Assembly (NCBI GenBank): GCA_919901565.1
Contig: CAKKPE010000035.1
Coordinates: forward strand, 6,396 to 70,395
Direction: 5' to 3'
Source of the DNA: a bacterium
GTDB lineage: Bacteria > CG2-30-53-67
DNA: 64,000 bases
A program made the position numbers and the translations under genes. Below are positions 19,022-48,949 of this stretch, one piece after another. Positions within the stretch are counted from its first letter, which is position 1. Each line of letters starts with the position of its first letter. The notes below the pieces were generated by a model. It saw only the letters and a program-made list of their open reading frames with translations, searched no databases and had not been told where the DNA came from.

Positions 19022-19024
19022 TTC

Positions 19025-30600: not shown

Positions 30601-30605
30601 TTAAA

Positions 30606-31440: not shown

Positions 31441-31444
31441 TGAG

Positions 31445-31545: not shown

Positions 31546-31575
31546 ACTCATTCGTAAAATAAAAAAGGAGAAACC

Positions 31576-32142: not shown

Positions 32143-32255
32143 ACTATCGAACGCACCGCGCAGTTAGCCTCGGAATTCGACTTCGCCGGGTGGGGAAGGC
32201 TGGCCGGGATGGCATGATATTGCCTGTCAACAAATGATGTCAACAGGAGGGACGC

Positions 32256-32885: not shown

Positions 32886-33254
32886 ACAAGAACGGTCTAA
32901 CGGGGAGAGGGGGCATGGCCGAGCAGAGCAGCCATTGAAGCATTGGAAGTGAACAACGGTGAGGGTGATGCGATGAGTAATGAACTGGTCGGATGGGATG
33001 ACGGCAAGATCTACTTTTACGATAGGAACGGAACAGAGTTTTGCGTGAACGATCACCCTGATCTCTTGCAAAAGATGGTCGAGATATGTGCCGGATATTT
33101 TATGCGGGGTGAAGACTGAGGTCATATGGGCACTGAGAATCCTTTGGCACACTTTGAAGCCGACGGCATTTGCTGACGGAGCACCGGACTGATACCGCCG
33201 AACGGGCTGCACGGTTTTCTGTCAAAGACTGGAAAGAAAAAGCAGAGGTGTGAA

Positions 33255-34607
33255 ATGAGTCACGATGAAATCGGAGTGTTGCTCGGAAAGGGCGAATCCG
33301 AGAAAATAGAGTTTAAGGAAAAATTCGACAGAGAAGCTATCGAAACCGCGGCTGCGTTTGCCAACACGAAAGGCGGAGTGATTCTTATCGGGTTTTCGGA
33401 TAAAGGAAGAGTCAAAGGCATTCAAATCGGAAAAGAGACGCTCAAAGACTGGGCAAATCAGATTTCTCAGTGCACGGAGCCCAGCATCGTACCGGAAATC
33501 AAACAGGCCGAAATAGAGGGTAAGGATGTTGTGATGATATGGATCAAAGAAGTCCCTATTAAGCCTGTATCCGTGAGAGGCAGATGCCTCAGGAGGGTGG
33601 GAAACAGCAACCGGATAATGACGCCGAACGAAGTTGCCCAAGTGCATCTCGCCACCACCGGCACGAGCTGGGACAAGCTTCCGGCAAAAGATGCTTCTGT
33701 TGATGCCATAGATCTTGCGAAGGTCAAGCGATATGTCAACAAGGCAAACCAATCCGGCAGGAGAAAGATCGGTAATGATGAGACGCCTCTGCAGGTTCTC
33801 GAAAAGCTCGATCTGATAAAAGACGGACAAGCCACCTGGGCGGCAATCCTTCTCTTTCGCAAGGACGGCAAGCGTTTCCTCTCCCAGACAGCGGTACACT
33901 GCGGCAGATTCAAGGAAGAGACCATCGTTATCGATGACAGGATGATCGAAGGCACCATCATAGAGCAGATAGACGATGCAATGGATTTCATCCGCAAAAA
34001 CATCAACGTTCGTTTTGTCATGACCGGAAGGCCCGCAAGAGAGGAAATATGGGACTATCCCATCGAAGCGCTGAGAGAGGCTTTGATCAACGCGGTCTGC
34101 CATCGAGATTATACCATTCCATCGAACACCGAAGTAAGGATATATGACGACAGGTTGATTGTGTGGAATCCGGGAGGACTCCCTCTCGGGATAACCATGG
34201 ATGACCTTTACAAGCCCCATCCCTCTGTGCTCAGGAACAAGGGTATAGGGGAGATATTCTATGACGTAGGCCTCATTGAACAGTGGGGCAGCGGAATAGA
34301 CAAGATGCGAAGTGCCTGCCTGAAATCAGGACTTCCTGAGCCGCAGTTTGAAGAGTATCAGGGATTCAGGGTGATCTTCAGAAAAGACGTCTATACAGAA
34401 GAATATCTCCGCAACCTTGGCTTGAATGAAAGGCAGATCAAGGCAGTGATGTATGTAAAGGAGAAAGGGAAGATTACGAACAAGGAGTATCGTGAAATAA
34501 CCGGGCTTTCTGATGAGGGAGTCAGGATAGACGTGAATGGGCTAATTGGAAAAGGGGTATTATTGTCAAAAGGTAGAGGCAGGAACGTTCATTATGTTCT
34601 TAAGTAA
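33255..34607 (+). CDS. AlbA_2 (Schlafen-like) + HATPase_c_4 + C-terminal HTH ATP-binding protein (putative DNA-binding / defence-associated)
   Basis: N-terminal ESEKIEFKEKFDREAIETAAAFANTKGGVILIGF (AlbA_2). Central ALREALINAVCHRDYTIPSNTEVRIYDDRLIVWNPGG (HATPase_c_4, RecG C-terminal-like). C-terminal wHTH-like region. Confidence 0.8.
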   Translation: MSHDEIGVLLGKGESEKIEFKEKFDREAIETAAAFANTKGGVILIGFSDKGRVKGIQIGKETLKDWANQISQCTEPSIVPEIKQAEIEGKDVVMIWIKEVPIKPVSVRGRCLRRVGNSNRIMTPNEVAQVHLATTGTSWDKLPAKDASVDAIDLAKVKRYVNKANQSGRRKIGNDETPLQVLEKLDLIKDGQATWAAILLFRKDGKRFLSQTAVHCGRFKEETIVIDDRMIEGTIIEQIDDAMDFIRKNINVRFVMTGRPAREEIWDYPIEALREALINAVCHRDYTIPSNTEVRIYDDRLIVWNPGGLPLGITMDDLYKPHPSVLRNKGIGEIFYDVGLIEQWGSGIDKMRSACLKSGLPEPQFEEYQGFRVIFRKDVYTEEYLRNLGLNERQIKAVMYVKEKGKITNKEYREITGLSDEGVRIDVNGLIGKGVLLSKGRGRNVHYVLK

Positions 34608-34867: not shown

Positions 34868-34969
34868 GGGGGGAAACAGAACTGGACCCTTGCACTCAGG
34901 AAAAAGGTTGAACAGGAGATTCATGACGACCAAACCCGACCCCATCGCCCACGTAACCGAAGACGGACG
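34868..34969 (+). repeat. ~101-bp direct repeat copy R-B (native context: 5' region of truncated cas3)
   Basis: Pairs with R-A at 31445-31545. Six mismatches and one indel. Confidence 0.8.
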
Positions 34970-35084
34970 CGTGCATCCGCTCCGGGATCACCTGAACGGA
35001 ACATCTGAGATGGCTGCGAAATTCGCTTTTGACTTTGGCTGTACCGAGTGGAGACGGCTGGCGGGGCTGTGGAGTTGGAATTGA
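34923..35084 (+). pseudogene. cas3: cas3 N-terminal remnant (HD-domain start, ~50 codons, truncated before the HD motif)
   Basis: MTTKPDPIAHVTEDGRVHPLRDHLNGTSEMAAKFAFDFGCTEWRRLAGLW follows the Cas3 N-terminal pattern (HL..V...A..FA..FG...W..LAGLWHDxGK) and stops where HD(L/I)GK should be. It lies directly upstream of cas5c, which is the canonical I-C cas3 position. Confidence 0.55.
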
Positions 35085-35114
35085 TGTGAACAAACGGGGG
35101 AGAAAGGAGCGTAT

Positions 35115-35750
35115 ATGCAAACCTACTCAATTCAAATGGAGGTATCCGGTCCCACGGCTATGTGGACACGCCCAGACACGGGTGACTCGCCGGTGAGTTA
35201 TCCTGTACCGACGTATTCAGCGGCAAAAGGTCTGTTTGAGGCGGTTGTCAGGATTGAGACAGTGGAGATCGTACCGGTCAAGGTGGAAATTTGTAAGCCG
35301 ATCGTTTTCCACAACTACGCGACCAATTACGGGGGGCCATTACGGAAAACAGCAATTATGCCACACAGTAGTTATCAGTTGCTGGCAACAACTCTGATCA
35401 ATGTGTGCTACCGGCTTTATGCGGAGATAAAACCGGCGCGATTTGCCGGGACGTTATCCGAAAAAGCGCGTTTGCAGGCAAGTAAAGGACTCAATGCGCT
35501 GCACGCCTGCCAGGATATGTTCAACCGCCGCTTGAAAAAAGGGCAGTGGCATGATACGCCTTTCCTTGGCTGGCGTGAATTTGTACCAGACTATATCGGG
35601 CCATTTCGGGAGGGTACGCAGATACAGGAAGATATTTCACTCGACCTGCCAAGTTTTCTTTTTTCTGTGTTTGAACCATCAGGGAGCAAACAACCAGTTT
35701 ACAAGCCTGATGCTAAAGTGAGAAACGGAGGGCTTGTCTATGCTGAATGA
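35115..35750 (+). CDS. cas5: type I-C CRISPR-associated protein Cas5c (Cas5d)
   Basis: 211 aa. MQTYSIQMEVSGPTAMWTRPDTGDSPVSYPVPTYSAAKGLFEAVV is the Cas5 Dvulg-type N-terminus. No cas6 in the locus. Confidence 0.85.
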   Translation: MQTYSIQMEVSGPTAMWTRPDTGDSPVSYPVPTYSAAKGLFEAVVRIETVEIVPVKVEICKPIVFHNYATNYGGPLRKTAIMPHSSYQLLATTLINVCYRLYAEIKPARFAGTLSEKARLQASKGLNALHACQDMFNRRLKKGQWHDTPFLGWREFVPDYIGPFREGTQIQEDISLDLPSFLFSVFEPSGSKQPVYKPDAKVRNGGLVYAE

Positions 35751-37797
35751 GCTTCGTGAACTATCGATATGCCTGGAAAAAGCAGGAATAAACCCTCCGG
35801 ACTATCACCCCAAGTTTACTTTATGTCCAAAGAGAACAGCTTGCTCTGTATACTTGGATAAAGATGGAAATATCTCAAGCATCAGCTCGATGGCCATTGA
35901 TCAGGTACAGACAGTTCGAAAATGGGATGGTGTCGGATCATATGGGGTTTCCTTTCCGTCGGTTAACTTGCCACCATTGTTGAAAGTGACTGATGACGAA
36001 TGCAAAAAGAAATTAATCACCATGAAAAAAAGCAGCAACATGTCGCGAGATGAAATTCAAAAAATTGTCACCTGTTCCACAAATCTGTGGCTGGATAACT
36101 TGGGTAAGAAGACAAATGCATTCGATAAAATCAACGAATGTCTTGATAAACCAGTAAACGACTTGTTTGCAAAACTTACTGATGTCCCTGATGAGTTTTC
36201 GTCAATTACTGAACTTCTTGCGAGAGCGAAAAAAATTGATTCAAAGAGATTCCATGGTCAATTGTATGGCGAGTTGATTAAGAATATTGAAGAAGGCAAG
36301 TCATGGCCAATAGATGTGTTGTTTTACTATAGTGGCGCAAAACCATTAGACTTTCAGATTGTTTTCGAAATTAGTGATTGGAAACAATTCCCTGCAAATC
36401 ATCCGGAAGTTCAAAAATGGATGAACTCAAAACTGCTGTCATCAACGACAACGAAAGTTTCTGCGGAAGTAGACGCGTTTGGCTGTAATGCTTCCGGGAA
36501 TGACGAGAAATTTCCAGATGTCGGTTTTAAAAACGCACTTGGTAATGTAAAGCTTCGGGCCATGACCAAAGACTCTCCTTGTCAGATGCGATACGGAATG
36601 ATTGAGCACGAATCTTTTTCTGTCGGGAATGATGTGCGGAAAGAAATGAAGCGTGCACTGGAATGGCTTGGAGACGACGATCGTAAAGGGAAAACATGGT
36701 GTGACCTCAGCCGTAGGATGGAACGACCGATGCTATTATTTGCCTATCCAACCCAAATTCCAGATAGTTTGCCTGACTTGGCTGGCATAATGGGAGATGC
36801 GGAAGACGAATTAGCTGAAATAGGGCAAGCGCGGTTTGCTGCGCTCGCTGAGAGAGTAACGGTTGCCTTGCGGGGTAGGACAAAGGAAACGGTAGATTCC
36901 GGGGTTCGTGTATTTGTTCTTGCGAAAAGACCGGGCGACGCGCGCACCAAGGTACTGGCGAGCAGGCGATATTCTGCCGATCATGTTATTCATGCGGCTC
37001 AGCTTTGGCAGGAGGGCAGCAGGAATGGTCCTACAATCAAGATACGGAGTTTCGGAAAAAACAAGGGTGATACGCCAGTTTGGATTGAAACGCTGATACC
37101 ATTTCCGGCAGAGGCGGTTTGGTGTCTGAATACGGTTTGGTCCCGTCAGGGCACCCGTGCGGAAGGGGCGCACGGATTCTCCGTCAATGATGCATTAATT
37201 CTGCTGCTGGGGGATGGTCACGAACTCCACCAGGTTGCCACAAGGGCGCTGAACGTAGCCCTTCGCAACAGTTTACCGTTGTTTCTGGCGCTTGGACAGG
37301 CAAATGCACAAGGGCTTGTGCATATGATCGATAAAAAATACACGAAGAAATATGAGAAACAAAAATTGTTGCTCCCGTCAATTATAAGTTTGAGCTTACA
37401 TAAACTGGGACACACGAAAGGAGAAATTATGACATCCTCTGCTTTTCTGGTCGGCAGGTTACTAAACCTCGCCGACAGTCTGCACCTCGAATACTGCAAA
37501 GGACCGCGTAAAGGGTCCGTTCCGCCGCAGCTAGTTGGCAATGCGCTTATGGCAACTGCTCTTGAAACTCCTGAAAAAGCCCTTTCAATGCTATCTCAGA
37601 GGGTTTTGCCCTATCAGGCATGGGCACGAACAGTGAAGGAGGGCGATAGGGTGGGCCTGGTAAAAACTTTTCTTAAGCAGCTTAGCGAGGTATCAGAGCA
37701 GTTGAAGGAAGCCCCATTGCCGCAGCGGTCCAGTGATACAGATAAAGCACAGATGCTGCTCGGGTATCTTGCCCGCGTAGAATCAGAAAAGAATTAA
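35734..37797 (+). CDS. cas8c: type I-C CRISPR-associated protein Cas8c (Csd1), large subunit
   Basis: 687 aa. 17-nt overlap with cas5c. Position and size match Csd1. Called mostly by synteny. Confidence 0.7.
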   Translation: MSMLNELRELSICLEKAGINPPDYHPKFTLCPKRTACSVYLDKDGNISSISSMAIDQVQTVRKWDGVGSYGVSFPSVNLPPLLKVTDDECKKKLITMKKSSNMSRDEIQKIVTCSTNLWLDNLGKKTNAFDKINECLDKPVNDLFAKLTDVPDEFSSITELLARAKKIDSKRFHGQLYGELIKNIEEGKSWPIDVLFYYSGAKPLDFQIVFEISDWKQFPANHPEVQKWMNSKLLSSTTTKVSAEVDAFGCNASGNDEKFPDVGFKNALGNVKLRAMTKDSPCQMRYGMIEHESFSVGNDVRKEMKRALEWLGDDDRKGKTWCDLSRRMERPMLLFAYPTQIPDSLPDLAGIMGDAEDELAEIGQARFAALAERVTVALRGRTKETVDSGVRVFVLAKRPGDARTKVLASRRYSADHVIHAAQLWQEGSRNGPTIKIRSFGKNKGDTPVWIETLIPFPAEAVWCLNTVWSRQGTRAEGAHGFSVNDALILLLGDGHELHQVATRALNVALRNSLPLFLALGQANAQGLVHMIDKKYTKKYEKQKLLLPSIISLSLHKLGHTKGEIMTSSAFLVGRLLNLADSLHLEYCKGPRKGSVPPQLVGNALMATALETPEKALSMLSQRVLPYQAWARTVKEGDRVGLVKTFLKQLSEVSEQLKEAPLPQRSSDTDKAQMLLGYLARVESEKN
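37429..37797 (+). CDS. candidate Cas11c small subunit from an internal in-frame start within cas8c
   Basis: AAAGGAGAAATT-ATG at 37429, in frame, yields 122 aa (MTSSAFLVGRLLNL...). Internal translation of a Cas11 from the I-C cas8c 3' end is a published mechanism. Confidence 0.45.
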   Translation: MTSSAFLVGRLLNLADSLHLEYCKGPRKGSVPPQLVGNALMATALETPEKALSMLSQRVLPYQAWARTVKEGDRVGLVKTFLKQLSEVSEQLKEAPLPQRSSDTDKAQMLLGYLARVESEKN

Positions 37798-37828
37798 ACC
37801 AACACATTTAAGGAAAAGGAGACAGACC

Positions 37829-38689
37829 ATGTCAAACGAAGCTAAAAAGATCATGCGCGCAACTGGCCTTCTCGTCATCGAGGCCATCAATTCCAACCCC
37901 AACGGCGACCCAGATCGCGAGAGCGATCCTCGCCAGCGTCCCGATAGACTGGGGGAAATTTCACCGGTGTCATTCAAACGGAAACTGCGAGACCTTGTAG
38001 AGGATAAAGAGGGGCCAGTCTGGAAGGAACTCAAGCAGCATCTTGGTCTTGCTGACGGGGAGTTTGAAGTCCTTGAATCACGTGGACGCGATCGGGGTAA
38101 GATCAAGAAAGAGCTTGAAGACAACGGCAAGATTTTCAAACAGAAATACTGGGATGCCAGGATTTTCGGCAATACCTTTCTTGAAGAGGGAGCAGCCAAT
38201 ACCATTAAAACCGGCGTTGTGCAATTTGGCATGGGGCTTTCGGTAGCACCAATCATCATCGAGCGCCACACGAACACTAACAAGGCCGGTGTCGAGGGGG
38301 ACAAGGATCGTGGCATGGCGCCAATGGCCTACCGTATCGTCCAGCATGGCATCTATTGCATGCCGTTTTTTGTGAATCCCAGTGCGGCGCACAAATCTGG
38401 GTGTACGGCAAAAGATATTGAATTACTGTTGGCCTTGATCCCCCACGCTTATGCCCATTCACGCTCATATGTGCGGCCAAACGTAGAGATCCTGAATGCT
38501 TGGTACATGGAGCACAAATCGGCAATCGGCTCTTGCTCGGATTTCAAGCTGATTGACTCGCTCACGCCGACGAAACTGGAACATTCGGATAGTGCATCAA
38601 ACAACAGGAAAGAGTATGACATTCCGTCTACTCTTCCTGCCGAGCTTCAGGGGAAAGTCGCTCCTTTGAAAGACCTGATGGAGTTCTAA
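37829..38689 (+). CDS. cas7: type I-C CRISPR-associated protein Cas7c (Csd2)
   Basis: 286 aa. ...LLVIEAINSNPNGDPDRESDPRQ...KRKLRD matches the Csd2 N-terminal signature. Confidence 0.85.
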   Translation: MSNEAKKIMRATGLLVIEAINSNPNGDPDRESDPRQRPDRLGEISPVSFKRKLRDLVEDKEGPVWKELKQHLGLADGEFEVLESRGRDRGKIKKELEDNGKIFKQKYWDARIFGNTFLEEGAANTIKTGVVQFGMGLSVAPIIIERHTNTNKAGVEGDKDRGMAPMAYRIVQHGIYCMPFFVNPSAAHKSGCTAKDIELLLALIPHAYAHSRSYVRPNVEILNAWYMEHKSAIGSCSDFKLIDSLTPTKLEHSDSASNNRKEYDIPSTLPAELQGKVAPLKDLMEF

Positions 38690-40891
38690 ATGAGCGAATA
38701 TCTCGCCCATAGCGCCAAGGACGGCATAGCGGAACAGACATATAGGCAGCATGTCTCGGAAGTCCTACGCATGGCGCGCGAGTATGCGAAGAGGGCGGCG
38801 GCGTATTCTCCGCTTGGCCCGCTTTTGCTGGCGGCTGTGGAGTACGCCGCTGCATACCATGATCTGGGAAAACTGGACGATGACAATCAGACTGTGCTGC
38901 GAACTGGCAGCAAGGGAAGCTTGCCGGTGAAGCATTGGGATGCGGGGACGGCTTATCTTCTGACCGACTCGAAGCGGTGGGCAAATCTTATTGGTGCCTT
39001 TCTGGTAGCTTGCCATCACAAAGGCTTGCTTTCGTTGCCGGATGAACAGGTCAGAGGACCTGATATGTTTCGTGAGGCTTCGGCTAAAGGCAGCACCGCT
39101 CTCGGCCTGTCCGGTTATCTTGCTGTTCATGCAGCAGAGATTGGTGTTGGCGTTTCAGAACAGGATTGGAAGGGCAAAGCCGCAACACCGCTCTTCATGC
39201 GTATGGCACTGTCATGCCTCGTAGATGCAGATCACACCGACACTGCGCGGCATTATGGAAATGTCGTACCCGAAGGCGATATGCCGCTTGCAGCCGAACA
39301 GCGGCTTCTGGCGCTCGACCAATATGTTGACGGTCTGACAACTGACGACAATAGCAGGAAGGAACGAGATGAAGTCCGGCGACAGGTATATGATGCATGC
39401 CGAACTGCCCAACCGAACGAAGGCGGCATGATTGCCTGTGACAGCCCGGTCGGAACTGGCAAGACAACAGCTGTCATGGCTCATCTTCTAAAGGCTGCAA
39501 AGGAGAAAGGTCTGCGGCGCGTGTTTGTTGTATTGCCGTTCACCAACATAATTGACCAGTCAGTTGATGTCTACCGCAAGGCGCTGGTACTGGATGGCGA
39601 AGAGTCGGAAAGAGTAGTTGCTGCTCACCACCACAAGGCAGAATTTGAAGAGGAGGCGAACCGAGCATTTTCCTTTCTTTGGAATGCGCCGATAACCGTC
39701 ACGACTGCCGTACAGTTCTTTGAGACCCTTGCAAGCAAACACCCCGCAACGCTTCGTAAGCTACATCAGTTGGCTGGTTCAGCCATTTTCATCGATGAAG
39801 CCCACGCAGCATTGCCCGCACATCTCTGGCCACAGGCCTGGAAATGGCTCCAGGAACTCGTGAAAGATTGGGGCTGTTATATCGTCATGGCTTCCGGTTC
39901 CCTTACGCGCTTTTGGGAGTTTGAGGAGTTTTCGGCACCACCGGCTCGGCTTGCAGAACTGGTCAGTCTTGATGTGCGTTCGTCGGCAATGCATACCGAA
40001 ACATCAAGAATCACCTACAGAATCAAAAACGAGGCGCATTCTCTCACGGATTTGTGTGACTGGATAGTCCAATTGCCGGGACCGCGTCTTGTTATCCTTA
40101 ACACTGTTCAGTCGGCTGCGGCAGTGGCCAGGGAGCTTGCCGGAGCAGAGCAGAAGAACAGGCAAAAGGTTGAACACCTATCAACAGCGCTGGCCCCGAT
40201 TGATCGCAAGGGAGTCCTGGAAAGGGTAAAAAAACGTCTGGGTGATAAGAATGACACCGATTGGACGCTGGTTGCTACCTCATGCGTTGAGGCGGGAGTT
40301 GATTTATCATTCCAGTCCGCAGCCCGCGAAATGTGCAGTCTGGTCAGCACCATTCAGACAGCCGGTCGTGTGAATCGTTCGGGAGAGTTCGGAACCTGCG
40401 AGCTGTGGAGTTTCAGGATTAAGGCAAGTGAACTCCTCAGAGAACATCCCGCGTTCACTGTTTCTTCAAGAATACTTGCGGACCTCTATGAGAAGGGGCA
40501 CGTTTCTCCCTATTACTGTAAAGAGGCCATGAGACGGGAGGTAAGAGACCGCAACAGGGGACGTTGTGAGGATGACCCAATTGTAAAGGCTGAGAAAAAA
40601 CGGGAATTCCCCGAGGTTGATGAGAAATTTAAGGTCATCGATTCAAACACGATTACTGTTGTTGTGGATGATGATTTGCGCCAACGCCTTGAGCGTCGTG
40701 AAAGAGTTGAACCGTTTGAATTGCAGCAAAAAAGCATCAATATTTACTCGTCAAAGGAAAGGACGTATGGCGTAGCGCCAATTCATGGGTTTGAAAAACT
40801 ATACCGTTGGACCCTGAAATATGACGACTTTCTTGGCTATATGGCTGGTGTGCTCCCCTTGACGAACTTTGCTGATAATTGCTGCATTTGA
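38690..40891 (+). CDS. cas3: CRISPR-associated helicase/nuclease Cas3 (HD + SF2 helicase)
   Basis: 733 aa. HD motifs (YHDLGK; LVDADHTDT). Helicase motifs I (DSPVGTGKT), II (FIDEAHA), V-like (SCVEAGVDLSF) and VI (QTAGRVNRSG). Its ATG directly abuts the cas7 stop. Confidence 0.9.
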   Translation: MSEYLAHSAKDGIAEQTYRQHVSEVLRMAREYAKRAAAYSPLGPLLLAAVEYAAAYHDLGKLDDDNQTVLRTGSKGSLPVKHWDAGTAYLLTDSKRWANLIGAFLVACHHKGLLSLPDEQVRGPDMFREASAKGSTALGLSGYLAVHAAEIGVGVSEQDWKGKAATPLFMRMALSCLVDADHTDTARHYGNVVPEGDMPLAAEQRLLALDQYVDGLTTDDNSRKERDEVRRQVYDACRTAQPNEGGMIACDSPVGTGKTTAVMAHLLKAAKEKGLRRVFVVLPFTNIIDQSVDVYRKALVLDGEESERVVAAHHHKAEFEEEANRAFSFLWNAPITVTTAVQFFETLASKHPATLRKLHQLAGSAIFIDEAHAALPAHLWPQAWKWLQELVKDWGCYIVMASGSLTRFWEFEEFSAPPARLAELVSLDVRSSAMHTETSRITYRIKNEAHSLTDLCDWIVQLPGPRLVILNTVQSAAAVARELAGAEQKNRQKVEHLSTALAPIDRKGVLERVKKRLGDKNDTDWTLVATSCVEAGVDLSFQSAAREMCSLVSTIQTAGRVNRSGEFGTCELWSFRIKASELLREHPAFTVSSRILADLYEKGHVSPYYCKEAMRREVRDRNRGRCEDDPIVKAEKKREFPEVDEKFKVIDSNTITVVVDDDLRQRLERRERVEPFELQQKSINIYSSKERTYGVAPIHGFEKLYRWTLKYDDFLGYMAGVLPLTNFADNCCI

Positions 40892-40900
40892 GAAAAGGCT

Positions 40901-41530
40901 ATGGACAATCAAGAGCCGATCATGATTTCCGCTCTGAATCATTACCTCTACTGCCCGCGGCGTTGCGGGCTGGTGCACGTTGAACAGGTCTGGAGTGAGA
41001 ACCTGTACACCATGCGCGGGCGCGACATGCATGAGAATGTTCACGAAGACTCCTCGCATTCTTTGGCTGGTGTACGATATGAACGAGCTCTTCCGATTTG
41101 GTCAAAGCGGCTGCATCTGGTCGGCAAGGCAGATTTGGTAGAGTTTCATGGAGAAATTCCATATCCTGTTGAGTATAAATCGGGAAGACATAAAACATTT
41201 CAGAATGATTACGTTCAGCTCTGCGCACAGGCCATGTGTCTTGAAGAGATGCTGGGGGTGAAGGTGGAGAAGGGCGCTCTTTACTGGCACGGGTCACGGG
41301 AACGGAAAGAGGTAGTCTTCACCGATGAGCTGCGGGGTCGGGTAGAGGAGGTGGCTGCCGAAGTCCATGCCATGATCGCGGAGAAGCGGCTTCCGCCGCC
41401 GGTGAACGACGGGAGGTGCGAAGATTGTTCTTTGAAGGATTCCTGCATGCCGGGAGCGATTGCCAACAAAGGAATGAGAAAGAAGGCGGAAATGGAGTTG
41501 TTTACAATGCCTCATAGGACGGAGGAATAG
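40901..41530 (+). CDS. cas4: CRISPR-associated exonuclease Cas4 (RecB-like, Fe-S)
   Basis: 209 aa. N-terminal Cys (YLYCPRRCGL) and C-terminal CEDCSLKDSC give the 4-Cys cluster. PD-(D/E)xK-like core. Confidence 0.85.
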   Translation: MDNQEPIMISALNHYLYCPRRCGLVHVEQVWSENLYTMRGRDMHENVHEDSSHSLAGVRYERALPIWSKRLHLVGKADLVEFHGEIPYPVEYKSGRHKTFQNDYVQLCAQAMCLEEMLGVKVEKGALYWHGSRERKEVVFTDELRGRVEEVAAEVHAMIAEKRLPPPVNDGRCEDCSLKDSCMPGAIANKGMRKKAEMELFTMPHRTEE

Positions 41531-41532
41531 GA

Positions 41533-42360
41533 ATGGGAAAAAGCATCGCGGTTTTCAAGGGGAAGGAAATCAGGAGAACGCTGTACAAGAACGAGTGGTG
41601 GTTTTCTGTCTCTGATGTTGTAGAAGCGTTAACCGATAGCGCTGATCCAAAGCAGTATATCAAGAAAATAAGACAGCGGGATACAGAGCTTAATTCCTAC
41701 TGGGGTACAATTTGTACCCCCCTTGAAATTATGGCGCCGGACGGGAAAACGCGTGAGACAAACTGCGCAAATACCGAGGGTGTTTTTCGCATCATCCAGT
41801 CCATTCCTTCTCCCAAGGCGGAGCCCTTCAAACGTTGGCTCGCCAAAGTCGGCTATGAGCGGGTGCAGGAGATTGAAGACCCGGAACTCGGTTCGAAGAG
41901 GACGCGGGCGCTCTATAAGGCCAAGGGCTACTCCGACGACTGGATCGAGAAGCGGATGAGGGGTATCGCCATCAGGGAAGAGCTTACGGATGAATGGAAA
42001 AAGCGGGACGTGCGAGAGAAAAGGGAATATGAGATCCTTACCGCGGAAATTGCCAAGGCTGCTTTCGGCATTACGCCTGGGAAACACAAGAAGATCAAAG
42101 GTCTGAAGCGTGAAAACCTGCGGGACCATATGAACGACCTTGAGCTGATCTTCTCGATGCTCGGCGAGGCGGCGACGACCGAGATTACGCGGGTTGATGA
42201 TGCCAAGGGATTTCATGAAAGCAAACATGCTGCTCGCAAGGGCGGAGAAGTTGCCGGAAAGGCGCGAAAAGACCTTGAACAAAAAACCGGGAAACGAGTA
42301 GTGTCGCGCGAAAACTACCTGACGACATCAGAAAGCCGGAAGAAGATCGAGAGGAAGTAA
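41533..42360 (+). CDS. Bro-N domain protein (DNA-damage-inducible protein D / phage antirepressor-like)
   Basis: FKGKEIRRTLYKNEWWFSVSDVVEALT...GVFRIIQSIPSPKAEPFKRWLAKVGYERVQE matches the Bro-N consensus. Starts 2 bp after the cas4 stop. Confidence 0.7.
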   Translation: MGKSIAVFKGKEIRRTLYKNEWWFSVSDVVEALTDSADPKQYIKKIRQRDTELNSYWGTICTPLEIMAPDGKTRETNCANTEGVFRIIQSIPSPKAEPFKRWLAKVGYERVQEIEDPELGSKRTRALYKAKGYSDDWIEKRMRGIAIREELTDEWKKRDVREKREYEILTAEIAKAAFGITPGKHKKIKGLKRENLRDHMNDLELIFSMLGEAATTEITRVDDAKGFHESKHAARKGGEVAGKARKDLEQKTGKRVVSRENYLTTSESRKKIERK

Positions 42361-42412
42361 TGCCGTCATGAATGAACTAATTTTTCATCAGGATCATTGA
42401 GGAGTTTCCTTT

Positions 42413-43555
42413 ATGCCGCAACCACTTGTCCAATACGCCGAACTGCTCGGCCAGATCAAACAGCGGATCAGGCAGGGACAGACCCGCGCCATGCTGTCCG
42501 CTAATGCTGAAATGATCCTGACCTACTGGGATATTGGACGGATGATTCTGGAAAGACAGGAACGGGAAGGATGGGGGACCTCTGTCATTCCACGGTTGTC
42601 CCGTGATCTTCGCAACGAACTGCCGGAAGTAAAAGGATTTTCCGAACGGAATATCAAGCTTATGGTGCAGTTTTATCGTGAATACCCGTCTCTTTCTCCA
42701 ATTGGGCAACGGCCGGTTGCCCAATTGACGGATAAGAACTCGACAGACCAGGAACAGGGTGACGCCGAATTAATGCAACGGCTCGTTGCCCAATTGCTAT
42801 GGGCGCAGAATGTGCTGCTGATGCAAAAAGTCAAAGATATACCGACCCGTTGCTGGTACGCTCAAACCGCAATAGAGCAGGGTTGGAGCCGGGACATTCT
42901 GCTTCATATGATTCAAGGTCGGGCGCACGAACGCCAGGGCAAGGCAATACACAACTTTGAGAGCCGCTTGCCTTCTCCTCAATCTGACTTGGTACAACAG
43001 GCTTTAAAGGACCCCTACATCTTCGATTTCCTCACCCTTGAAGAGCCGTTTCACGAGCGTGAGCTGGAAACTAGCCTGATACGGCATCTGGAGAAATTTC
43101 TGCTGGAGCTCGGGCAGGGGTTTGCCTTTGTCGGACGGCAGTATCATCTCGACATCGGAGAAGAGGATTTTTACATTGACCTTCTTTTCTATCATCTGCG
43201 GCTCCGTTGCTTCGTGGTGATCGAATTGAAGAAGGGCGGTTTCAAACCGGAATACGCGGGCAAGATGAACTTCTACTGCAATGTGGTGGATGACCGGTTA
43301 AAACATGCGGGCGATAATCCTACCATCGGGCTGATTCTCTGTCAGGACAAGAAGTCCGTGCTGGCCGAATACACGTTGCGAGGCGTTTCCAAACCGATCG
43401 GTATTTCTGAATATGAACTGACTCGGGCGCTACCACACAGCCTGAAATCGGCGCTTCCCAGCGTTGAGGAGATTGAACGCGAATTGAGCGAAGATGTTGA
43501 AGGCGTACCTAAGAAGCGCAACAGGAAGAAGTCCGGAAAGAGGATCGCGCAATGA
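42413..43555 (+). CDS. DUF1016 (YhcG-like) PD-(D/E)xK nuclease family protein
   Basis: The N-terminal region matches DUF1016. Nuclease core IDLLFYH...CFVVIELKKGGFKPEYAGKMNFY (D...ExK). Confidence 0.75.
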   Translation: MPQPLVQYAELLGQIKQRIRQGQTRAMLSANAEMILTYWDIGRMILERQEREGWGTSVIPRLSRDLRNELPEVKGFSERNIKLMVQFYREYPSLSPIGQRPVAQLTDKNSTDQEQGDAELMQRLVAQLLWAQNVLLMQKVKDIPTRCWYAQTAIEQGWSRDILLHMIQGRAHERQGKAIHNFESRLPSPQSDLVQQALKDPYIFDFLTLEEPFHERELETSLIRHLEKFLLELGQGFAFVGRQYHLDIGEEDFYIDLLFYHLRLRCFVVIELKKGGFKPEYAGKMNFYCNVVDDRLKHAGDNPTIGLILCQDKKSVLAEYTLRGVSKPIGISEYELTRALPHSLKSALPSVEEIERELSEDVEGVPKKRNRKKSGKRIAQ

Positions 43556-43669
43556 ATACGGAAGTGAAGTCGTGACACTATGTCACGGGTTCTCCATATA
43601 TTCAATTCCTTCTCCGTGCGCTCTGTGGTAAAACTTGACAATACTGAAAAAGCTGAAGGGTGATGATAT

Positions 43670-44728
43670 ATGAAAAAAAGGAATCAAGATGACCCAATGA
43701 AAAGCGATCTGATTCTCTATCAGACGGACGACGGCAGAACCAGAATCGAAGTCCGGTTGCAGGATGAAACGGTATGGATGAGCCAACTGGCCATGGCGGA
43801 GTTGTTTCTAACAACTGTTCCTAACATCAATATCCACTTGAGCAATGTATATAAAGAAGGCGAGCTTTCAGAGACGGCAACGGTTAAGGATTACTTAATA
43901 GTTCGACAGGAAGGTTCCCGGCGGGTTAAGCGTGCGGTCAGGCACTACAATCTTGAAGCCATTATAGCGGTTGGCTACCGGGTTAAATCCAACCGTGGCA
44001 CGCAGTTCCGAAAATGGGCTACCGAAAGACTGAATGAGTATCTCGTAAAGGGCTTTACTCTGGACGACGAACGCCTGAAAGAAGGCAGTAATATTGGTTC
44101 CGACTACTTTGATGAACTGCTGGAGCGGATTCGTGACATACGGTCGAGCGAAAAGCGCTTCTATCAGAAAATTCGCGACATTTATAGGCTTGCGGCTGAT
44201 TACGATCCGAAGGCAGAGGAAACGCTCGAGTTTTTCCGTATCGTCCAGAATAAACTGCACTTTGCCATATCCCATAAGACGGCAGCGGAAATTATTTCTG
44301 AACGGGCGGATTCGTCGAAGCCCAATATGGGATTGACCTCATGGAAGGGATCCAAAGTCCGCAGGGGGGATGTGACAATCGCCAAGAATTACCTGAATCA
44401 GGATGAGTTAGAGCAACTCAATCGCATTGTAGAAATGTATCTGAACTATGCTGAAGACCAGGCTAAACGCCGAAGGCAGGTTTTCATGCGCGACTGGCGG
44501 AAAAAACTGGATGCCTTCCTGCAACTTAACGAAAGAGAGATTCTCGCTGATGCCGGCAAAGTGGCCAAGGAGATAGCAGACAAACTGGCGCTTGATCAAT
44601 ACGATATCTTTAATCACAATCGGCTTGTTATCGAAGCGAAAGAGGAAGCCCTTGCCGATGATGAAGAGTTGAAGCATATAGAATCAGCTATTGAAAACAA
44701 AAAGAAGCAGTGGCGCAAAAATGACTGA
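43670..44728 (+). CDS. RhuM family protein
   Basis: LILYQTDDGRTRIEVRLQDETVWMSQLAMAELF and VGYRVKSNRGTQFRKWATERLNEYLVKGF are characteristic of the RhuM family. Confidence 0.8.
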   Translation: MKKRNQDDPMKSDLILYQTDDGRTRIEVRLQDETVWMSQLAMAELFLTTVPNINIHLSNVYKEGELSETATVKDYLIVRQEGSRRVKRAVRHYNLEAIIAVGYRVKSNRGTQFRKWATERLNEYLVKGFTLDDERLKEGSNIGSDYFDELLERIRDIRSSEKRFYQKIRDIYRLAADYDPKAEETLEFFRIVQNKLHFAISHKTAAEIISERADSSKPNMGLTSWKGSKVRRGDVTIAKNYLNQDELEQLNRIVEMYLNYAEDQAKRRRQVFMRDWRKKLDAFLQLNEREILADAGKVAKEIADKLALDQYDIFNHNRLVIEAKEEALADDEELKHIESAIENKKKQWRKND

Positions 44729-44762
44729 ACCCATACTTCCTCCACTAATGCATGATGGAAAG

Positions 44763-45149
44763 TTACCACTCCGCCCTGATGGGATATTTTGTTATGCGAG
44801 GATCGGGCGTGAGGATGACCAGTCCTCCGGCAATTGCTTGGCAGATGAGAATTCTGTCGAAGGGGTCCTTGTGATAATCCGGGAGTCGGGAAAGCTGCAA
44901 TACCGCCGCTTCGTCCAGCGGCAATGAATCGATATCATGGCGGGTGCGCCACTTCTTGATGAATTCGTGGGGAGTGCCCGGGAGCGGCAACTTGCCCAGC
45001 TTGTGTTTGACGATGATCTCCCATGCGGAGGCAACGCTCAGGTAGACCTCATTGGCGGGATCAGAAAAAAGCCGACGGGCAGTGTCGGACAACTCGGGAC
45101 CTCCCGACACGATCCAAAGAAACGTGCAGGTGTCCAGAAGGATGTTCAC
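44763..45149 (-). CDS. vapC: type II toxin-antitoxin system VapC family toxin (PIN domain)
   Basis: 128 aa. MNILLDTCTFLWIV... PIN-domain acidic residues (D6, E, D). 4-nt overlap with the upstream antitoxin gene. Confidence 0.8.
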   Translation of the reverse strand: MNILLDTCTFLWIVSGGPELSDTARRLFSDPANEVYLSVASAWEIIVKHKLGKLPLPGTPHEFIKKWRTRHDIDSLPLDEAAVLQLSRLPDYHKDPFDRILICQAIAGGLVILTPDPRITKYPIRAEW

Positions 45150-45397
45150 GATTCGGCACCGCCAAACATCGCGAGCATGTCCTCCGGCAACTCCTCGAAG
45201 AACGAGGCAGGCACTGTAAATTTGCCTTTGGACAAGCCTATGGGACGCGGCTTATTCCGATGGGGAGCAAGGGGACGTATTTCAGCGACCGGCTGGTTCC
45301 GCCTGCACACGACGACGATTTCCCCATGCTCCACTTCTTCAAGGTAGTGTGAGAGATGGGTTTTTGCTTCATGAATATTGATTTTTTTCATGGTCAA
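45146..45397 (-). CDS. type II antitoxin (Phd/YefM-like)
   Basis: 83 aa. INIHEAKTHLSHYLEEVEHGEIVVVCRRNQPVAEIRPL matches the Phd/YefM fold pattern. Translationally coupled to vapC. Confidence 0.7.
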   Translation of the reverse strand: MTMKKINIHEAKTHLSHYLEEVEHGEIVVVCRRNQPVAEIRPLAPHRNKPRPIGLSKGKFTVPASFFEELPEDMLAMFGGAES

Positions 45398-45414
45398 ATA
45401 TTAAACCAAGTAGT

Positions 45415-45427
45415 TGACTAAGTCAAG
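45415..45427. promoter_or_regulatory. perfect palindrome TTGACT-A-AGTCAA in the divergent vapB/cas1 promoter region (candidate antitoxin operator overlapping a -35-like hexamer)
   Basis: Sits in the 61-bp intergenic region between the vapB start (45397, minus) and the cas1 start (45459, plus). Confidence 0.3.
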
Positions 45428-45458
45428 GGAAAATTCTCTAAAGCAGAGGGCCATAAAC

Positions 45459-46493
45459 ATGAAACAACTCCTGAATACGCTCTACGTCATGACCCAGGGG
45501 GCATACGTCAATCTTGATCATGAGACCCTGAAGGTGGAAGTGGAAGGCAAGGTGCAGATGCAGGTGCCGCTTCATCATCTTGGGGCTATCGTGACCATGG
45601 GAAACGTGATGATGAGCCCGTTTCTTCTGGGACGCTGTGCGGACGACGGGAGAGCGGTCGTGATCCTGGATCGGAACGGCCAGTTCAAATGCCGAATGGT
45701 AGGCAAGACCACAGGAAACGTCCTGCTCAGACAGGCACAGTATGAGTTTGTCAGGGATAAAGAGAAGTCGACAGGGGTTGCCCGGAACATCGTGGCGGGA
45801 AAGGTTAGAAATTCCCGTGAGGTGCTTCTTCGCGGAGCCAGGGAAACCGAGAATCAGGAAGAGATCTCAGCTCTCAAGAAGGCTGCCGATATTCTCGCCG
45901 ATGCGCTCTTTCGTCTGAAGGATACGCACGATATCGATGTGGTGCGGGGTTATGAAGGTGAGTCGGCTAATGCCTATTTCGGTGTTTTTGACCGGATGGT
46001 GAAGGAGGACGCACGCAAAACGTTCAAGATGAATGGACGAAACAGAAGGCCGCCCCTCGATCCGGTGAACGGCCTGTTGTCGTTTCTCTATACGCTTGTG
46101 CTCAATGATTGCATCTCTGCATTGGAAGGGGTGGGACTTGATTCACAGATGGGTTTTCTCCATGCCCTCAGACCGGGAAGACCTTCCTTGGGCCTGGATT
46201 TGATGGAAGAGTTCCGTTCGCTGCTGGCCGACAGGCTTGCACTGACGCTGATCAATCGCAAACAGATAACGTCAAAGGATTTTGAAGTACGGCCAGGCGG
46301 CGCAACCCTGCTGAACGACGAGGGACGAAAGACTGTCGTGGTGGCGTATCAAAAGAGGAAGCAGGATGAATTCAAACATCCTGTATTAAATGAGAAGGTT
46401 TCGTTTGGTCTGCTCCCCCATGTTCAGGCACGGCTTTTGGCAAGACACCTGAGAGGCGATCTGGAAGTCTATCCACCTTTCTTGTATTCATAG
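45459..46493 (+). CDS. cas1: CRISPR-associated endonuclease Cas1 (type I-C)
   Basis: MKQLLNTLYVMTQGAYVNLDHETLKVEV is a typical Cas1c N-terminus. The 45414 ORF start is probably an over-extension. Conserved acidic and His residues are present. Confidence 0.9.
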   Translation: MKQLLNTLYVMTQGAYVNLDHETLKVEVEGKVQMQVPLHHLGAIVTMGNVMMSPFLLGRCADDGRAVVILDRNGQFKCRMVGKTTGNVLLRQAQYEFVRDKEKSTGVARNIVAGKVRNSREVLLRGARETENQEEISALKKAADILADALFRLKDTHDIDVVRGYEGESANAYFGVFDRMVKEDARKTFKMNGRNRRPPLDPVNGLLSFLYTLVLNDCISALEGVGLDSQMGFLHALRPGRPSLGLDLMEEFRSLLADRLALTLINRKQITSKDFEVRPGGATLLNDEGRKTVVVAYQKRKQDEFKHPVLNEKVSFGLLPHVQARLLARHLRGDLEVYPPFLYS

Positions 46494-46507
46494 GGAGGAA
46501 ATGATAT

Positions 46508-46798
46508 ATGTGGATCATCGTTGCTTATGATGTGTCAACGGATACTAAGTCCGGACGCCGAAGGCTTCGCCGCGTGGCTCAGGCATGTAAGAACTACGGC
46601 CAGCGTGTTCAAAAATCGGTCTTTGAATGTCAGGTGGATGAGATGAAGTATGAGGCTCTGCGAAAGAAACTCCTGGAAGAAATTAATAAAGAAGAGGATA
46701 ATCTGCGTTTATATCGCCTGACAGAGCCAAGAGATGAACATGTGGAAGAGTATGGGATGGCAAGAACTATTTTCTTTGATGAACCTCTGATCATTTAG
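46508..46798 (+). CDS. cas2: CRISPR-associated endoribonuclease Cas2
   Basis: 96 aa. [41 protein letters not shown]. Confidence 0.9.
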
Positions 46799-46975
46799 TG
46801 CGAACCTGATGCGCTATCGAAAAAGCCGTAAGATTCGTGAAAGATAAAAAACAGCTTTTATCAATATGTTAGGTGATAGTGAAGTGTTTGCATCGAGAAT
46901 ATTTAAGACCGATTTTATGATTTCGCAGAATATGTTTCTCAACATATTGAAATCAAAGCAAAAAAAACAAGAACA
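46799..46975 (+). promoter_or_regulatory. CRISPR leader (AT-rich, between cas2 and first repeat)
   Basis: 177 bp, AT-rich relative to its flanks. Lies at the opposite end of the array from the degenerate terminal repeat. Confidence 0.6.
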
Positions 46976-48949
46976 GAAGCACCCGCCCACGTGGGCGGGT
47001 GAGGATTGAAACTCTGCAGCGGCCAAGGAACTCAGATGCAATGGGATGAAGCACCCGCCCACGTGGGCGGGTGAGGATTGAAACAGCTTTATTGATCTGG
47101 ATGGCCCTCCCCGTTGCCGGAAGCACCCGCCCACGTGGGCGGGTGAGGATTGAAACTGGAACGTCTGCGACTGATCCGGTCCCAGGCCCGGAAGCACCCG
47201 CCCACGTGGGCGGGTGAGGATTGAAACTGAACCCATGATGGTCGATGTCTCGGCCTTTTCACGAAGCACCCGCCCACGTGGGCGGGTGAGGATTGAAACT
47301 CCGAAGCGGTCGGGACCATCCACGCCCTGGCCCGAAGCACCCGCCCACGTGGGCGGGTGAGGATTGAAACAATTCGTCGAGAGTCCCGTTGTGGTGGATA
47401 TTGTGAAGCACCCGCCCACGTGGGCGGGTGAGGATTGAAACAAAGGAACAATGCTGATATCATCTAACGCCAACTGAAGCACCCGCCCACGTGGGCGGGT
47501 GAGGATTGAAACTTTTTTGATATTGATCTTGTCCACCGGGACCACGGGAAGCACCCGCCCACGTGGGCGGGTGAGGATTGAAACCTGATACATCATATAT
47601 CTCCGTCGCCTGGCCCTCGAAGCACCCGCCCACGTGGGCGGGTGAGGATTGAAACAAGATCACGGATGCCAAGGGTATAGCAGGCCCGTCGAAGCACCCG
47701 CCCACGTGGGCGGGTGAGGATTGAAACAGTTTGGCATGATGGTATGAACTCCTTGCCTCAGGAAGCACCCGCCCACGTGGGCGGGTGAGGATTGAAACAG
47801 AGTGTCCCATATCCCGTCATTGACGATCAGGTCGAAGCACCCGCCCACGTGGGCGGGTGAGGATTGAAACATCCCCTCCAGCAGTTCAGCCGCTGCCAGA
47901 AGAAAGAAGCACCCGCCCACGTGGGCGGGTGAGGATTGAAACCTGTAAGACCTTACCGTTAAAGACCGGCCTCCCAGGAAGCACCCGCCCACGTGGGCGG
48001 GTGAGGATTGAAACAATATTATGGTAAGAAAGTACGTCACCTCTCCCGGCGAAGCACCCGCCCACGTGGGCGGGTGAGGATTGAAACCAAGTAGGATCGC
48101 AGAACTTCGCCAAATCCAAAGGAAGCACCCGCCCACGTGGGCGGGTGAGGATTGAAACGGGTTTGACCCCCCGGGGGGCTCGGCCGATGGGTCGAAGCAC
48201 CCGCCCACGTGGGCGGGTGAGGATTGAAACAATCTGCCTGTGTAGTTTAACCCATCCATTGCCCAGAAGCACCCGCCCACGTGGGCGGGTGAGGATTGAA
48301 ACGGGTTTGACCCCCCGGGGGGCTCGGCCGATGGGTCGAAGCACCCGCCCACGTGGGCGGGTGAGGATTGAAACAGATGCGACAATGCTTTGCCTCGACG
48401 ATCTCGGTAGAAGCACCCGCCCACGTGGGCGGGTGAGGATTGAAACCCCGGTACGACCGGGAGAAGGAAGACTTTTATATGAAGCACCCGCCCACGTGGG
48501 CGGGTGAGGATTGAAACCCAGCCCGGGTGACGGGATCTTTGCGTGGGATAATGAAGCACCCGCCCACGTGGGCGGGTGAGGATTGAAACTTTACAGCGTG
48601 GACATGTCATGGTCGGCTCTCCTTCGAAGCACCCGCCCACGTGGGCGGGTGAGGATTGAAACGAAAACCACTTACTCACAGTCTGGCGATGCCGATTGAA
48701 GCACCCGCCCACGTGGGCGGGTGAGGATTGAAACGCGGAGTGCAGCCGCAGGACGATATCCTCCAAGCCGAAGCACCCGCCCACGTGGGCGGGTGAGGAT
48801 TGAAACCATAAATGTTTGATCCCTTGGCCGCCCGAACCCGGGAAGCACCCGCCCACGTGGGCGGGTGAGGATTGAAACATGCGATCTCAGGCGGAGGCCT
48901 CCGGGGAATACGAAGCACCCGCCCACGTGAGCTGGTGAGGATTGAAACT
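46976..48949 (+). CRISPR. CRISPR array, 28 repeats / 27 spacers; repeat GAAGCACCCGCCCACGTGGGCGGGTGAGGATTGAAAC (37 nt), spacers 34-36 nt
   Basis: Period ~72 bp. The repeat holds a perfect 22-nt palindrome, CACCCGCCCACGTGGGCGGGTG, and ends in the ATTGAAAC 5'-handle sequence. The last repeat (48913-48949) is mutated (GGGCGGGTG to GAGCTGGTG). Spacers 17 and 19 are identical. Confidence 0.95.

Follow-up and report, generated by a model that had tools for sequence, protein, structure and literature searches.

Canonical type I-C CRISPR-Cas systems (Dvulg; Desulfovibrio vulgaris, Bacillus halodurans, Neisseria lactamica) combine Cas5c, Cas8c and Cas7 (Csd2) with a single HD-helicase Cas3, a separate Cas4 and I-C-type Cas1 and Cas2, and have no Cas6. 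Their genes run cas3-cas5-cas8c-cas7-cas4-cas1-cas2, an order that is typical of the subtype and is not known to belong to its formal definition. Here we describe a locus of this family in a 64-kb stretch of a bacterial contig (CAKKPE010000035.1; the whole stretch is called the window, and coordinates are positions in it). It shares all these components, a stem-loop repeat ending in GGATTGAAAC and a likely internal Cas11 start in cas8c. It differs in that cas3 stands after cas7 and not ahead of cas5, in that its Cas5, Cas8c, Cas7 and Cas3 score well under the NCBIfam I-C cutoffs, in its 37-nucleotide (nt) repeat, in the accessory genes between cas4 and cas1, and in a 5′ stub of cas3 at the canonical cas3 position. 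The best overall explanation, to which we give a probability of about 0.7, is that the locus is an intact system of an I-C sub-lineage and that the stub, from a cas3 of the canonical lineage, is a recurrent exchange boundary, preferably also a leader open reading frame (ORF).

A type I-C system with cas3 behind cas7

The cas genes all lie on the plus strand between 34.9 and 49 kb:

34923..35084, plus strand: stub-d, an ORF of 53 codons; AGGAGA precedes the start
35115..35750, plus strand: cas5c, 211 amino acids (aa); PADLOC Cas5c, E = 9e-23
35734..37797, plus strand: cas8c, 687 aa, divergent; PADLOC PDLC01562 over the full length, E = 1e-136
37829..38689, plus strand: cas7 (Csd2-like), 286 aa; PF05107, E = 1e-50
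38690..40891, plus strand: intact cas3 of a divergent lineage, 733 aa; HD nuclease and superfamily 2 (SF2) helicase
40901..41530, plus strand: cas4; TIGR00372, 139.5 bits (cutoff 65); PADLOC Cas4c
45414..46493, plus strand (likely ATG at 45459): cas1, I-C type; TIGR03640, 517.5 bits (cutoff 385)
46508..46798, plus strand: cas2; best PADLOC model Cas2c
46799..46975, plus strand: AT-rich leader, 177 nt, read from the sequence
46976..48948, plus strand: CRISPR array, 28 copies of a 37-nt repeat (GAAGCACCCGCCCACGTGGGCGGGTGAGGATTGAAAC) with spacers of 34-36 nt

A sequence-only reading of the window had given this gene order and these coordinates correctly, leaving unmentioned the four genes between cas4 and cas1. 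Its description of the cas3 ATG as abutting the cas7 stop is exact (cas7 ends at 38689, cas3 starts at 38690), as are a Cas5 of about 210 aa (211 aa), the lack of cas6 (family searches found none in the operon or its flanks) and the separation of cas4 from cas1, which are 3.9 kb apart. The order is thus cas5-cas8c-cas7-cas3-cas4-(four genes)-cas1-cas2. The I-C-like assignment made there is upheld by the Cas8c match to PDLC01562, the Cas7 match to PF05107, the Cas1 match to TIGR03640 and the Cas4c and Cas2c matches. The intact Cas3 scores above the cutoff for cas3_HD (TIGR01596), and its HD motifs (AHS, HDLGK, CHHKG) and helicase motifs (GTGKT, DEAH) are readable in the translation. Within cas8c, an in-frame ATG at 37429 (codon 566) is preceded by AAGGAG and would open a product of 122 aa; the Csd1 C-terminal homology in Cas8c begins at residue 567, and a putative Cas11-like product, as expected in I-C, is likely. 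Judged from the sequence, every I-C component is intact. By analogy with established I-C biology, Cas5c would cut the pre-CRISPR RNA at its stem-loop, Cas5, Cas8c, Cas7 and the internally translated Cas11 would form Cascade, the divergent HD-helicase Cas3 would degrade the target, and Cas4, Cas1 and Cas2 would acquire spacers.

The interference proteins are strongly divergent. Only the C-terminal ∼110 residues of Cas8c match the classical Csd1 models (TIGR01863, 25.5 bits against a cutoff of 218.65; PF09709, 23.5 bits against 27). Since it matches the PADLOC Cas8c profile end to end, such proteins have already been filed under I-C in profile collections. Cas5 is above the cutoff for PF09704 and reaches 47 bits on TIGR01876 (cutoff 85), and the best NCBIfam model for Cas7 is the I-C model TIGR02589 (114 bits; cutoff 182). 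The intact Cas3 scores 362 bits on PADLOC Cas3c PDLC01765, as against 620-725 bits for five canonical I-C Cas3 proteins. In NCBIfam it has no I-C Cas3 equivalog match, and its best match is the I-G Cas3g model, at 113.7 bits against a cutoff of 400.

Other subtypes fit less well. The order cas3-cas4-cas1-cas2 is that of type I-B, and the window has this sub-order after its effector genes. Unlike I-B, no match to the type I-B Cas8b or Cas6 was found among the window cas proteins, the I-B models for Cas5 and Cas7 score far below the I-C models, and the I-C-type Cas1 reaches only 173 bits on the I-B model (cutoff 304). Hallmarks of type I-G (a Cas4-Cas1 fusion, a Cas5-Cas6 fusion and Cas8u/Csx17) are absent, cas4 and cas1 being separate genes that both fall below the cutoff of NF049935.

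The repeat had been taken, from its length, as a sign of hybrid origin close to I-B/I-G. I-C repeats form a stem-loop and have a ATTGAAAC 3′ end that gives an 11-nt 5′ handle, usually in a length of 32 nt. The window repeat has this design, with an 11-bp palindromic stem and the 3′ end GGATTGAAAC, differs in length and matches Rfam CRISPR-DR9. Loci of the same clade carry either classical 32-nt I-C repeats (GTCGCGCCCC...GCGTGGATTGAAAC; in sister loci GTCGCGCCCC...GTGGATTGAAAC) or 37-nt versions with a longer stem. The occurrence of both forms within the clade makes the 37-nt repeat an I-C-internal variant rather than evidence of I-B/I-G ancestry and, together with the I-C character of Cas1, Cas4 and Cas2, removes the ground for a hybrid origin. 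The array has 27 spacers, and its last repeat is degenerate. One spacer is duplicated two units apart, in a repeat-spacer-repeat segment of 110 nt (48122-48231 and 48266-48375, 100% identical), and the first ∼21 nt of the repeat (GAAGCACCCGCCCACGTGGGG) stand alone at 49332-49358, ∼380 nt past the last repeat, and may be left over from an array that was once longer, or from an older one.

Relatives were collected in two scans. A Cas8c-based scan of one genome per species gave seven loci, from metagenome-assembled genomes (MAGs) of Deltaproteobacteria, Nitrospirota, Dehalococcoidia and Gammaproteobacteria, and a Cas5-profile scan of metagenomes gave more than 543, from which 80 were retained. 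Comparison loci are designated by L-numbers. The order cas5-cas8-cas7-cas3 is found in all 46 of the 46 loci that reach through cas3, with cas4-cas1-cas2 next wherever the contig extends, and identity falls to ∼51% for Cas5 and ∼26% for Cas8 among the compared loci. The order cas5-8-7-3-4-1-2 is therefore a lineage trait that spans several phyla and not a local shuffle. A tblastn search of a plasmid collection with Cas8c gave no match, and the literature searched (which did not include subscription literature) held no description of this gene order or of a cas3 stub. Published 'I-C variants' are other things, namely I-G/GSU0054, degraded Bacillus cereus loci and phage systems without Cas3. In one of the relatives (L003, a Dehalococcoidia MAG), cas5 (9376-10014) has an in-frame stop at 9703-9705, indicating a pseudogene or a sequencing error.

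Across these loci the identity of Cas3 to the window protein tracks that of Cas5, Cas8 and Cas7 (Spearman 0.79-0.89) and does not track that of Cas1 or Cas2 (0.26 and 0.07), while the identities of Cas1, Cas2 and Cas4 track one another. This co-variation makes cas3 part of the interference module and places a recombination seam between cas3 and the adaptation genes. The sequence-only reading had proposed a module shuffle in which one cas3 was deleted and a cas3 of different ancestry entered, perhaps with cas4-cas1-cas2. As a rival model this was taken as a one-off event, with loss of the resident cas3 and arrival of a foreign, I-B/I-G-like cas3 together with the adaptation genes and a non-I-C repeat. 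In its favour are the I-B-like sub-order, the different lineages of the stub and the intact Cas3 (see below), and the distance of the latter from canonical Cas3c profiles with an I-G model as best NCBIfam match. That match, however, is far below its cutoff, and neither a one-off event nor a joint arrival of cas3 with the adaptation genes agrees with an order that is universal in a large, deep clade or with the correlations above. Cas1 is above the I-C equivalog cutoff, Cas4 and Cas2 are best on I-C models, the repeat is I-C-like with both lengths in the clade, and stubs precede canonical operons too. We consider a one-off shuffle improbable. We assign the locus to the type I-C family as an intact system. 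Its sub-lineage is distinct, deep, widespread and little described, and is marked by a gene order that is conserved and non-canonical and by interference proteins that have diverged strongly.

A cas3 stub of the canonical lineage ahead of cas5

Stub-d has a Shine-Dalgarno sequence ahead of it, and its stop lies 30 nt ahead of the cas5 ATG, with the AAAGGAG of cas5 in between. Its translation, MTTKPDPIAHVTEDGRVHPLRDHLNGTSEMAAKFAFDFGCTEWRRLAGLWSWN followed by the stop, corresponds to the first ∼50 residues of the HD domain of canonical-type I-C Cas3. The HD dyad is lost; the ORF ends in AGLWSWN where its relatives read AGLWHDLGKY. NCBIfam and Pfam have no match for the 64-aa extended stub ORF, as would be the case for a chance open frame with a superficial resemblance to Cas3; only PADLOC and custom profiles detect it. 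Against a chance frame, stub-d matches two PADLOC Cas3c models (E = 4.9e-8 and 2e-6), and a profile built from 13 homologous stubs matches residues 1-62 in two solved structures of I-C Cas3 (E = 4e-13 for 8zns_A, and 1e-11). Homologues stand at the same position in dozens of loci; at a threshold of 10 bits the stub profile gives 91 matches on the plus strand over all loci and none on the minus strand, which served as control. These profile, structure and recurrence matches refute a chance frame.

The remnant also differs in ancestry from the intact cas3, as the sequence-only reading had said; its description of the ORF (there 50 codons) as a cas3 N-terminal relic is likewise borne out. The stub profile scores 57.7 bits on the N-terminus of a canonical I-C Cas3 and does not exceed 16.6 bits on the intact Cas3 proteins from 47 variant loci, that is, loci with the window's gene order, which rules out a duplicate of the 5′ end of the intact cas3. 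Full-length Cas3 proteins with the stub-type N-terminus (AGLWHDLGKYS) exist, and one of them (P0180) belongs to an ordinary cas3-cas5-csd1-cas7-cas4-cas1-cas2 locus. In the 53-aa ORF only the motif I region of the HD motif set (H...HD...H...H...D) is present; stub-d is a homologous fragment of Cas3, not a member enzyme. Stand-alone Cas3″ HD nucleases (split Cas3 of I-A and some I-B systems) are likewise separate HD-derived ORFs adjoining effector genes. Unlike them, the stub has only ∼50 residues (motif I, at most motif II) and is unable to build an HD active site; the window stub even lacks the HD dyad, and a complete HD domain is present in the intact Cas3 of the locus.

Stubs recur, and not only in variant loci. 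Among the 68 variant loci with at least 250 nt of upstream sequence, 26 have a stub homologue just upstream of cas5: 15 of the 22 whose Cas5 is at least 60% identical to that of the window and 11 of the 46 more distant ones. Searching a database with the stub profile gave 2050 proteins; the 120 with the best matches are all 56-121 aa long, some of them on contigs of 30-97 kb. In L088-90 the variant layout is repeated behind the stub. In L091 and L093 the stub stands ahead of canonical-order I-C operons, whose complete cas3 has its own, different N-terminus, and on two short contigs (L095/96) the gene after the stub also opens with its own Cas3-type N-terminus. Stubs ahead of canonical operons with a complete cas3 mean that the stub is not simply the scar of a cas3 move, and the earlier account of the relic as a mark of cas3 relocation falls with this. 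In one locus (L052, 5760-9699) a canonical-type cas3, split into an HD ORF of 203 aa and a helicase ORF of 530 aa, precedes the variant operon, with two antitoxin/PIN-toxin pairs following the split cas3 ahead of that operon; this arrangement may be an intermediate state before stub formation.

The point at which Cas3 homology stops varies. For 91 of the 120 small proteins (∼76%) its distance past HD is no more than 15 residues, and overall the distance ranges from 0 to ∼65 residues, a spread that rules out a site-specific recombination junction exactly after HDLGK. A single ancestral truncation is likewise ruled out as a full account, because tails and junctions vary by group and some stubs extend further; a shared junction (GKYS followed by IK) may unite the window with L019, L025, L028 and the L004 group. 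Single accessory genes can follow a stub directly, AlbA_2 in L027 and Bro-N in L098 and L033, and in L027 the AlbA_2 gene is flanked on both sides by pieces coding for GLWHDLGK. Between stub and next gene, some loci have an ORF of ∼110 aa with two CxxC pairs, Zn-ribbon-like and without a Pfam match (L002, 9044-9340; L093, 10228-10560; also L013, L017 and L065), which occurs in variant and canonical I-C loci. A palindromic insertion of ∼30 nt, resembling repetitive extragenic palindromic (REP) elements (translated TPPQSSPCQGEVGGV), interrupts the stub in L005 (957-1139) and in L084-L087; loci sharing it have Cas5 proteins only 56% identical.

Pairwise comparisons place exchange junctions at the stub. 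L095 (a stub and then a cas3-like gene with its own N-terminus) and L088 (a stub and the variant operon) are 98.6% identical over ∼650 nt upstream of and through the stub, the identity ending at the GLWHD codons. In both the variant locus L002 and the canonical locus L093 a WYL regulator gene lies upstream; the two are 87.5% identical in a span of 489 nt, made up of the stub and the 110-aa ORF, with nothing in common downstream. Between L004 and L088 identity is 100% across the stub and up to a point ∼45 nt into cas5, and ∼50% from there on. In L005 and L085 the stubs are 93-100% identical, including the same 10-aa palindromic insertion, while both flanks have diverged (Cas5, 56%). L069 and L099 do not differ in cas5 or in the stub tail; the 18 substitutions between them in the N-part of the stub form a patch that extends as far as the HD motif. 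On either reading of the stub, as a selected ORF or as a functionless scar, cassette exchange has its left boundary there.

As in the known modular shuffling of CRISPR-Cas systems, interference cassette, adaptation module and cargo have independent histories here. Unlike in known cases, the left exchange boundary here is a specific conserved coding remnant, itself selected-looking, and stubs accumulate in tandem, each ahead of a gene.

Evidence for and against selection on the stub

In eight phylogenetically independent pairs, the first ∼50 codons of the stub have 111, 91 and 213 differences at codon positions 1, 2 and 3, and the proportion of synonymous differences (pS = 0.68) exceeds that of non-synonymous ones (pN = 0.25; Fisher p = 1e-36); the bias is absent in both shifted frames. 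In six close pairs in which both members are truncated, 36 synonymous differences at 203 sites compare with 28 non-synonymous differences at 738 sites, a ratio of non-synonymous to synonymous divergence (dN/dS) of ∼0.2. These pairs include window/L009, L005/L085 and L025/L098, and the insertion shared by the L005/L085 stubs is unlikely to be tolerated in a working HD domain. For the window and L009, which have the same junction and both lack the HD dyad, dN/dS is 0.24. Intact stubs show no frameshifts despite nucleotide divergence of up to ∼40%. The clustering of homology ends near HD, with none of the best 120 proteins longer than 121 aa, is as expected from erosion to the edge of a constrained segment. 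From these sequence comparisons, the stub appears to evolve under frame-specific purifying selection.

A number of observations weigh against a function of the stub. It is absent from 42 of the 68 variant loci and decayed or frameshifted in L006, L017, L033, L059, L065 and L083, and is thus dispensable for the system. A simple scan for sigma-70-like promoters found none on the plus strand upstream of stub-d, and the majority of the comparison loci are metagenome contigs. The synonymous divergence (dS) of the stub is often several times that of the adjoining cas5 (2.19 against 0.40 for the window and L002), and the L069/L099 patch resembles gene conversion; with such deep dS and such patches, much of the low dN/dS may be inherited from functional cas3 via recombination. 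The metal-binding His of motif I is nearly invariant in a peptide unable to be a nuclease, which fits inherited constraint as well as a new function, and in the group with the tail KLLKSRILHEIHCTI conservation is higher in this junk tail than in the N-part. High stub dS, patches, the conserved tail and His, and the stubless loci all fit repeated overwriting from functional cas3.

These points can be assembled into an alternative in which the stub is a functionless scar, repeatedly regenerated or converted from functional full-length cas3 by homologous recombination when a cassette enters a resident canonical I-C locus, the rest being trimmed by deletion bias. Recombination boundaries within or at the end of the stub, a stub dS commonly above that of adjoining genes, a junk tail better conserved than the N-part, the many decayed or lost stubs, catalytic His residues conserved without their catalytic context, and the full-length (though split) canonical-type cas3 still present upstream of the variant operon in L052 all accord with it. 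However, same-junction truncated pairs (window/L009, L005/L085, L025/L098) still have a dN/dS of ∼0.2, intact stubs remain free of frameshifts, the N-part is still constrained in the window clade, which has lost the HD dyad, and homologous recombination should work poorly on 150-nt tracts with an identity of ∼70%. We regard a scar as possible, with the odds somewhat against it. That the stub is a selected, translated ORF receives slightly better than even odds on the sequence data, and it is with this reading that the preferred explanation proceeds. The stub would then be the first ORF of the operon transcript, translated and kept as a leader ORF or small protein, and would also offer a homology tract for cassette swaps.

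The 5′ block, embedded cargo and implications

Upstream of stub-d the window holds three further stubs and several accessory genes, and four more genes are embedded between cas4 and cas1:

29406..30434, plus strand: WYL regulator gene (HTH_11-WYL-WCX; Pfam), at the head of the block
31443..31554, plus strand: stub-a, leader and codons 1-17 (MTTKPDPIAHVTEDGRTHS, then a stop), directly ahead of the PRiA4_ORF3 gene
31576..32142, plus strand: PRiA4_ORF3-family accessory gene (PF07929, E = 1.5e-71)
32143..32233, plus strand: stub-b, residues ∼27-48 and then WHDI in another frame, directly ahead of the ORF6N gene
32256..32885, plus strand: ORF6N-domain (KilA-N/Bro-like) accessory gene (PF10543)
33126..33250, plus strand: stub-c, frameshifted (MGTENPLAHFEADG... 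/ ...HLLTEHRTDTAERAARFSVKDW), directly ahead of the AlbA_2 gene
33255..34607, plus strand: gene for a Schlafen AlbA_2 / HATPase_c_4 protein with a C-terminal winged helix-turn-helix (Pfam)
41533-42360, plus strand: Bro-N gene, between cas4 and cas1 (Pfam)
42413-43555, plus strand: YhcG/DUF1016 PDDEXK nuclease gene, between cas4 and cas1 (Pfam)
43670-44728, plus strand: RhuM gene, between cas4 and cas1 (Pfam)
44937-45347, plus strand: orf136 (136 aa), no family assigned, between cas4 and cas1

The window thus holds four stubs in the same orientation (a-d), each preceding a gene. Stub-a has 94% nucleotide identity to 34867-34969 over 103 nt, stub-b scores 15.4 bits with the stub hidden Markov model (26.5 bits for its counterpart in L009-11) and stub-c scores 16.7 bits. 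Some of the neighbouring genes recur as well. At least 10 related loci, and L093 as well, have a WYL gene ahead of the operon on the same strand, and the WYL protein is a probable transcriptional regulator of the cas operon. ORF6N homologues are found upstream of cas5 in L009-11, L059 and L076, and an AlbA_2 homologue lies between stub and cas5 in L027. L010, 90-95% identical to the window, is without the AlbA_2 gene, stub-a and most of the WYL gene, differences which show that the 5′ region is changing quickly. A scan around stub-d found no terminator on the plus strand.

The cargo between cas4 and cas1 (41533..45347) differs even from that of L010. Bro-N or RhuM genes also lie between cas4 and cas1 in L010-12, L015, L026, L085 and L087 and in the canonical locus L093, and RhuM adjoining cas1 has been reported in II-C loci of Bacteroides fragilis (PMC5704556). 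The embedding of RhuM, DUF1016 and Bro-type genes resembles that in type I restriction-modification operons, and the embedded Bro-N, YhcG, RhuM, PRiA4, ORF6N and AlbA_2 genes would, by that likeness, be mobile cargo.

Some other features of the block and the window were recorded. The AlbA_2/HATPase_c_4 protein also matches two PADLOC models, pAgo PDLC02394 (E = 1e-19) and Aga SIR2-PNTD (E = 7e-19), probably through a shared Schlafen-like or PNTD-type domain. A 48-codon ORF (32973-33116; MSNELVGWDDGKIYFYDRNG...) lies between ORF6N and stub-c. Intergenic arrays of 8-9-nt units with TTGAAC/GTTCAA (e.g. GGGTTCAA eight times) occur at 3027-3092, 19024-19128, 27736-27801 and 30392-31310, the largest, of ∼900 nt, between the WYL gene and stub-a; the motif also fills the degraded stub region of L033. 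These arrays may be binding sites of the iteron type, or else a simple repeat specific to the lineage. Two further features have no relation to the CRISPR locus, a cyclic di-GMP-I riboswitch (60481-60629, plus strand; 48 bits against a gathering score of 35) and a tRNA gene (12929-13000, minus strand).

In the proposed explanation, stub-d would be the 5′ stub of a canonical-lineage I-C cas3, an element that recurs as the 5′ limit of I-C loci. Entire cas operons of either kind, variant or canonical, as well as individual accessory genes, would have been repeatedly exchanged or inserted behind it, with the junction at the HD motif or within ∼30 codons after it, and the four tandem stubs of the window would record such events. 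A more elaborate version gives the stub two roles, a translated mini-protein or leader ORF that controls either expression or activity of the interference genes behind it and an integron-like 5′ platform for cassette capture. The tandem stub-gene units, four in the window, would be the footprint of such a platform; we think this dual role unlikely.

As far as the literature was searched, a recurrent cas3 stub that behaves like coding sequence is new, as are its position before both variant and canonical operons and the tandem stub-gene units. The cas5-8-7-3 lineage is compact and widespread, with a strongly divergent Cas3 and Cas8c, and might yield editing tools of the I-C kind with different properties. 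If the stub is kept by selection, it would be a new small protein or leader ORF for type I-C biology and would offer a concrete route for swapping interference modules while the regulatory surroundings (WYL regulator, promoter and first ORF) are retained. Even as scars, the stubs would let successive operon replacements at CRISPR loci be read off, a record that could be used to measure the rate of interference-cassette turnover within a species.

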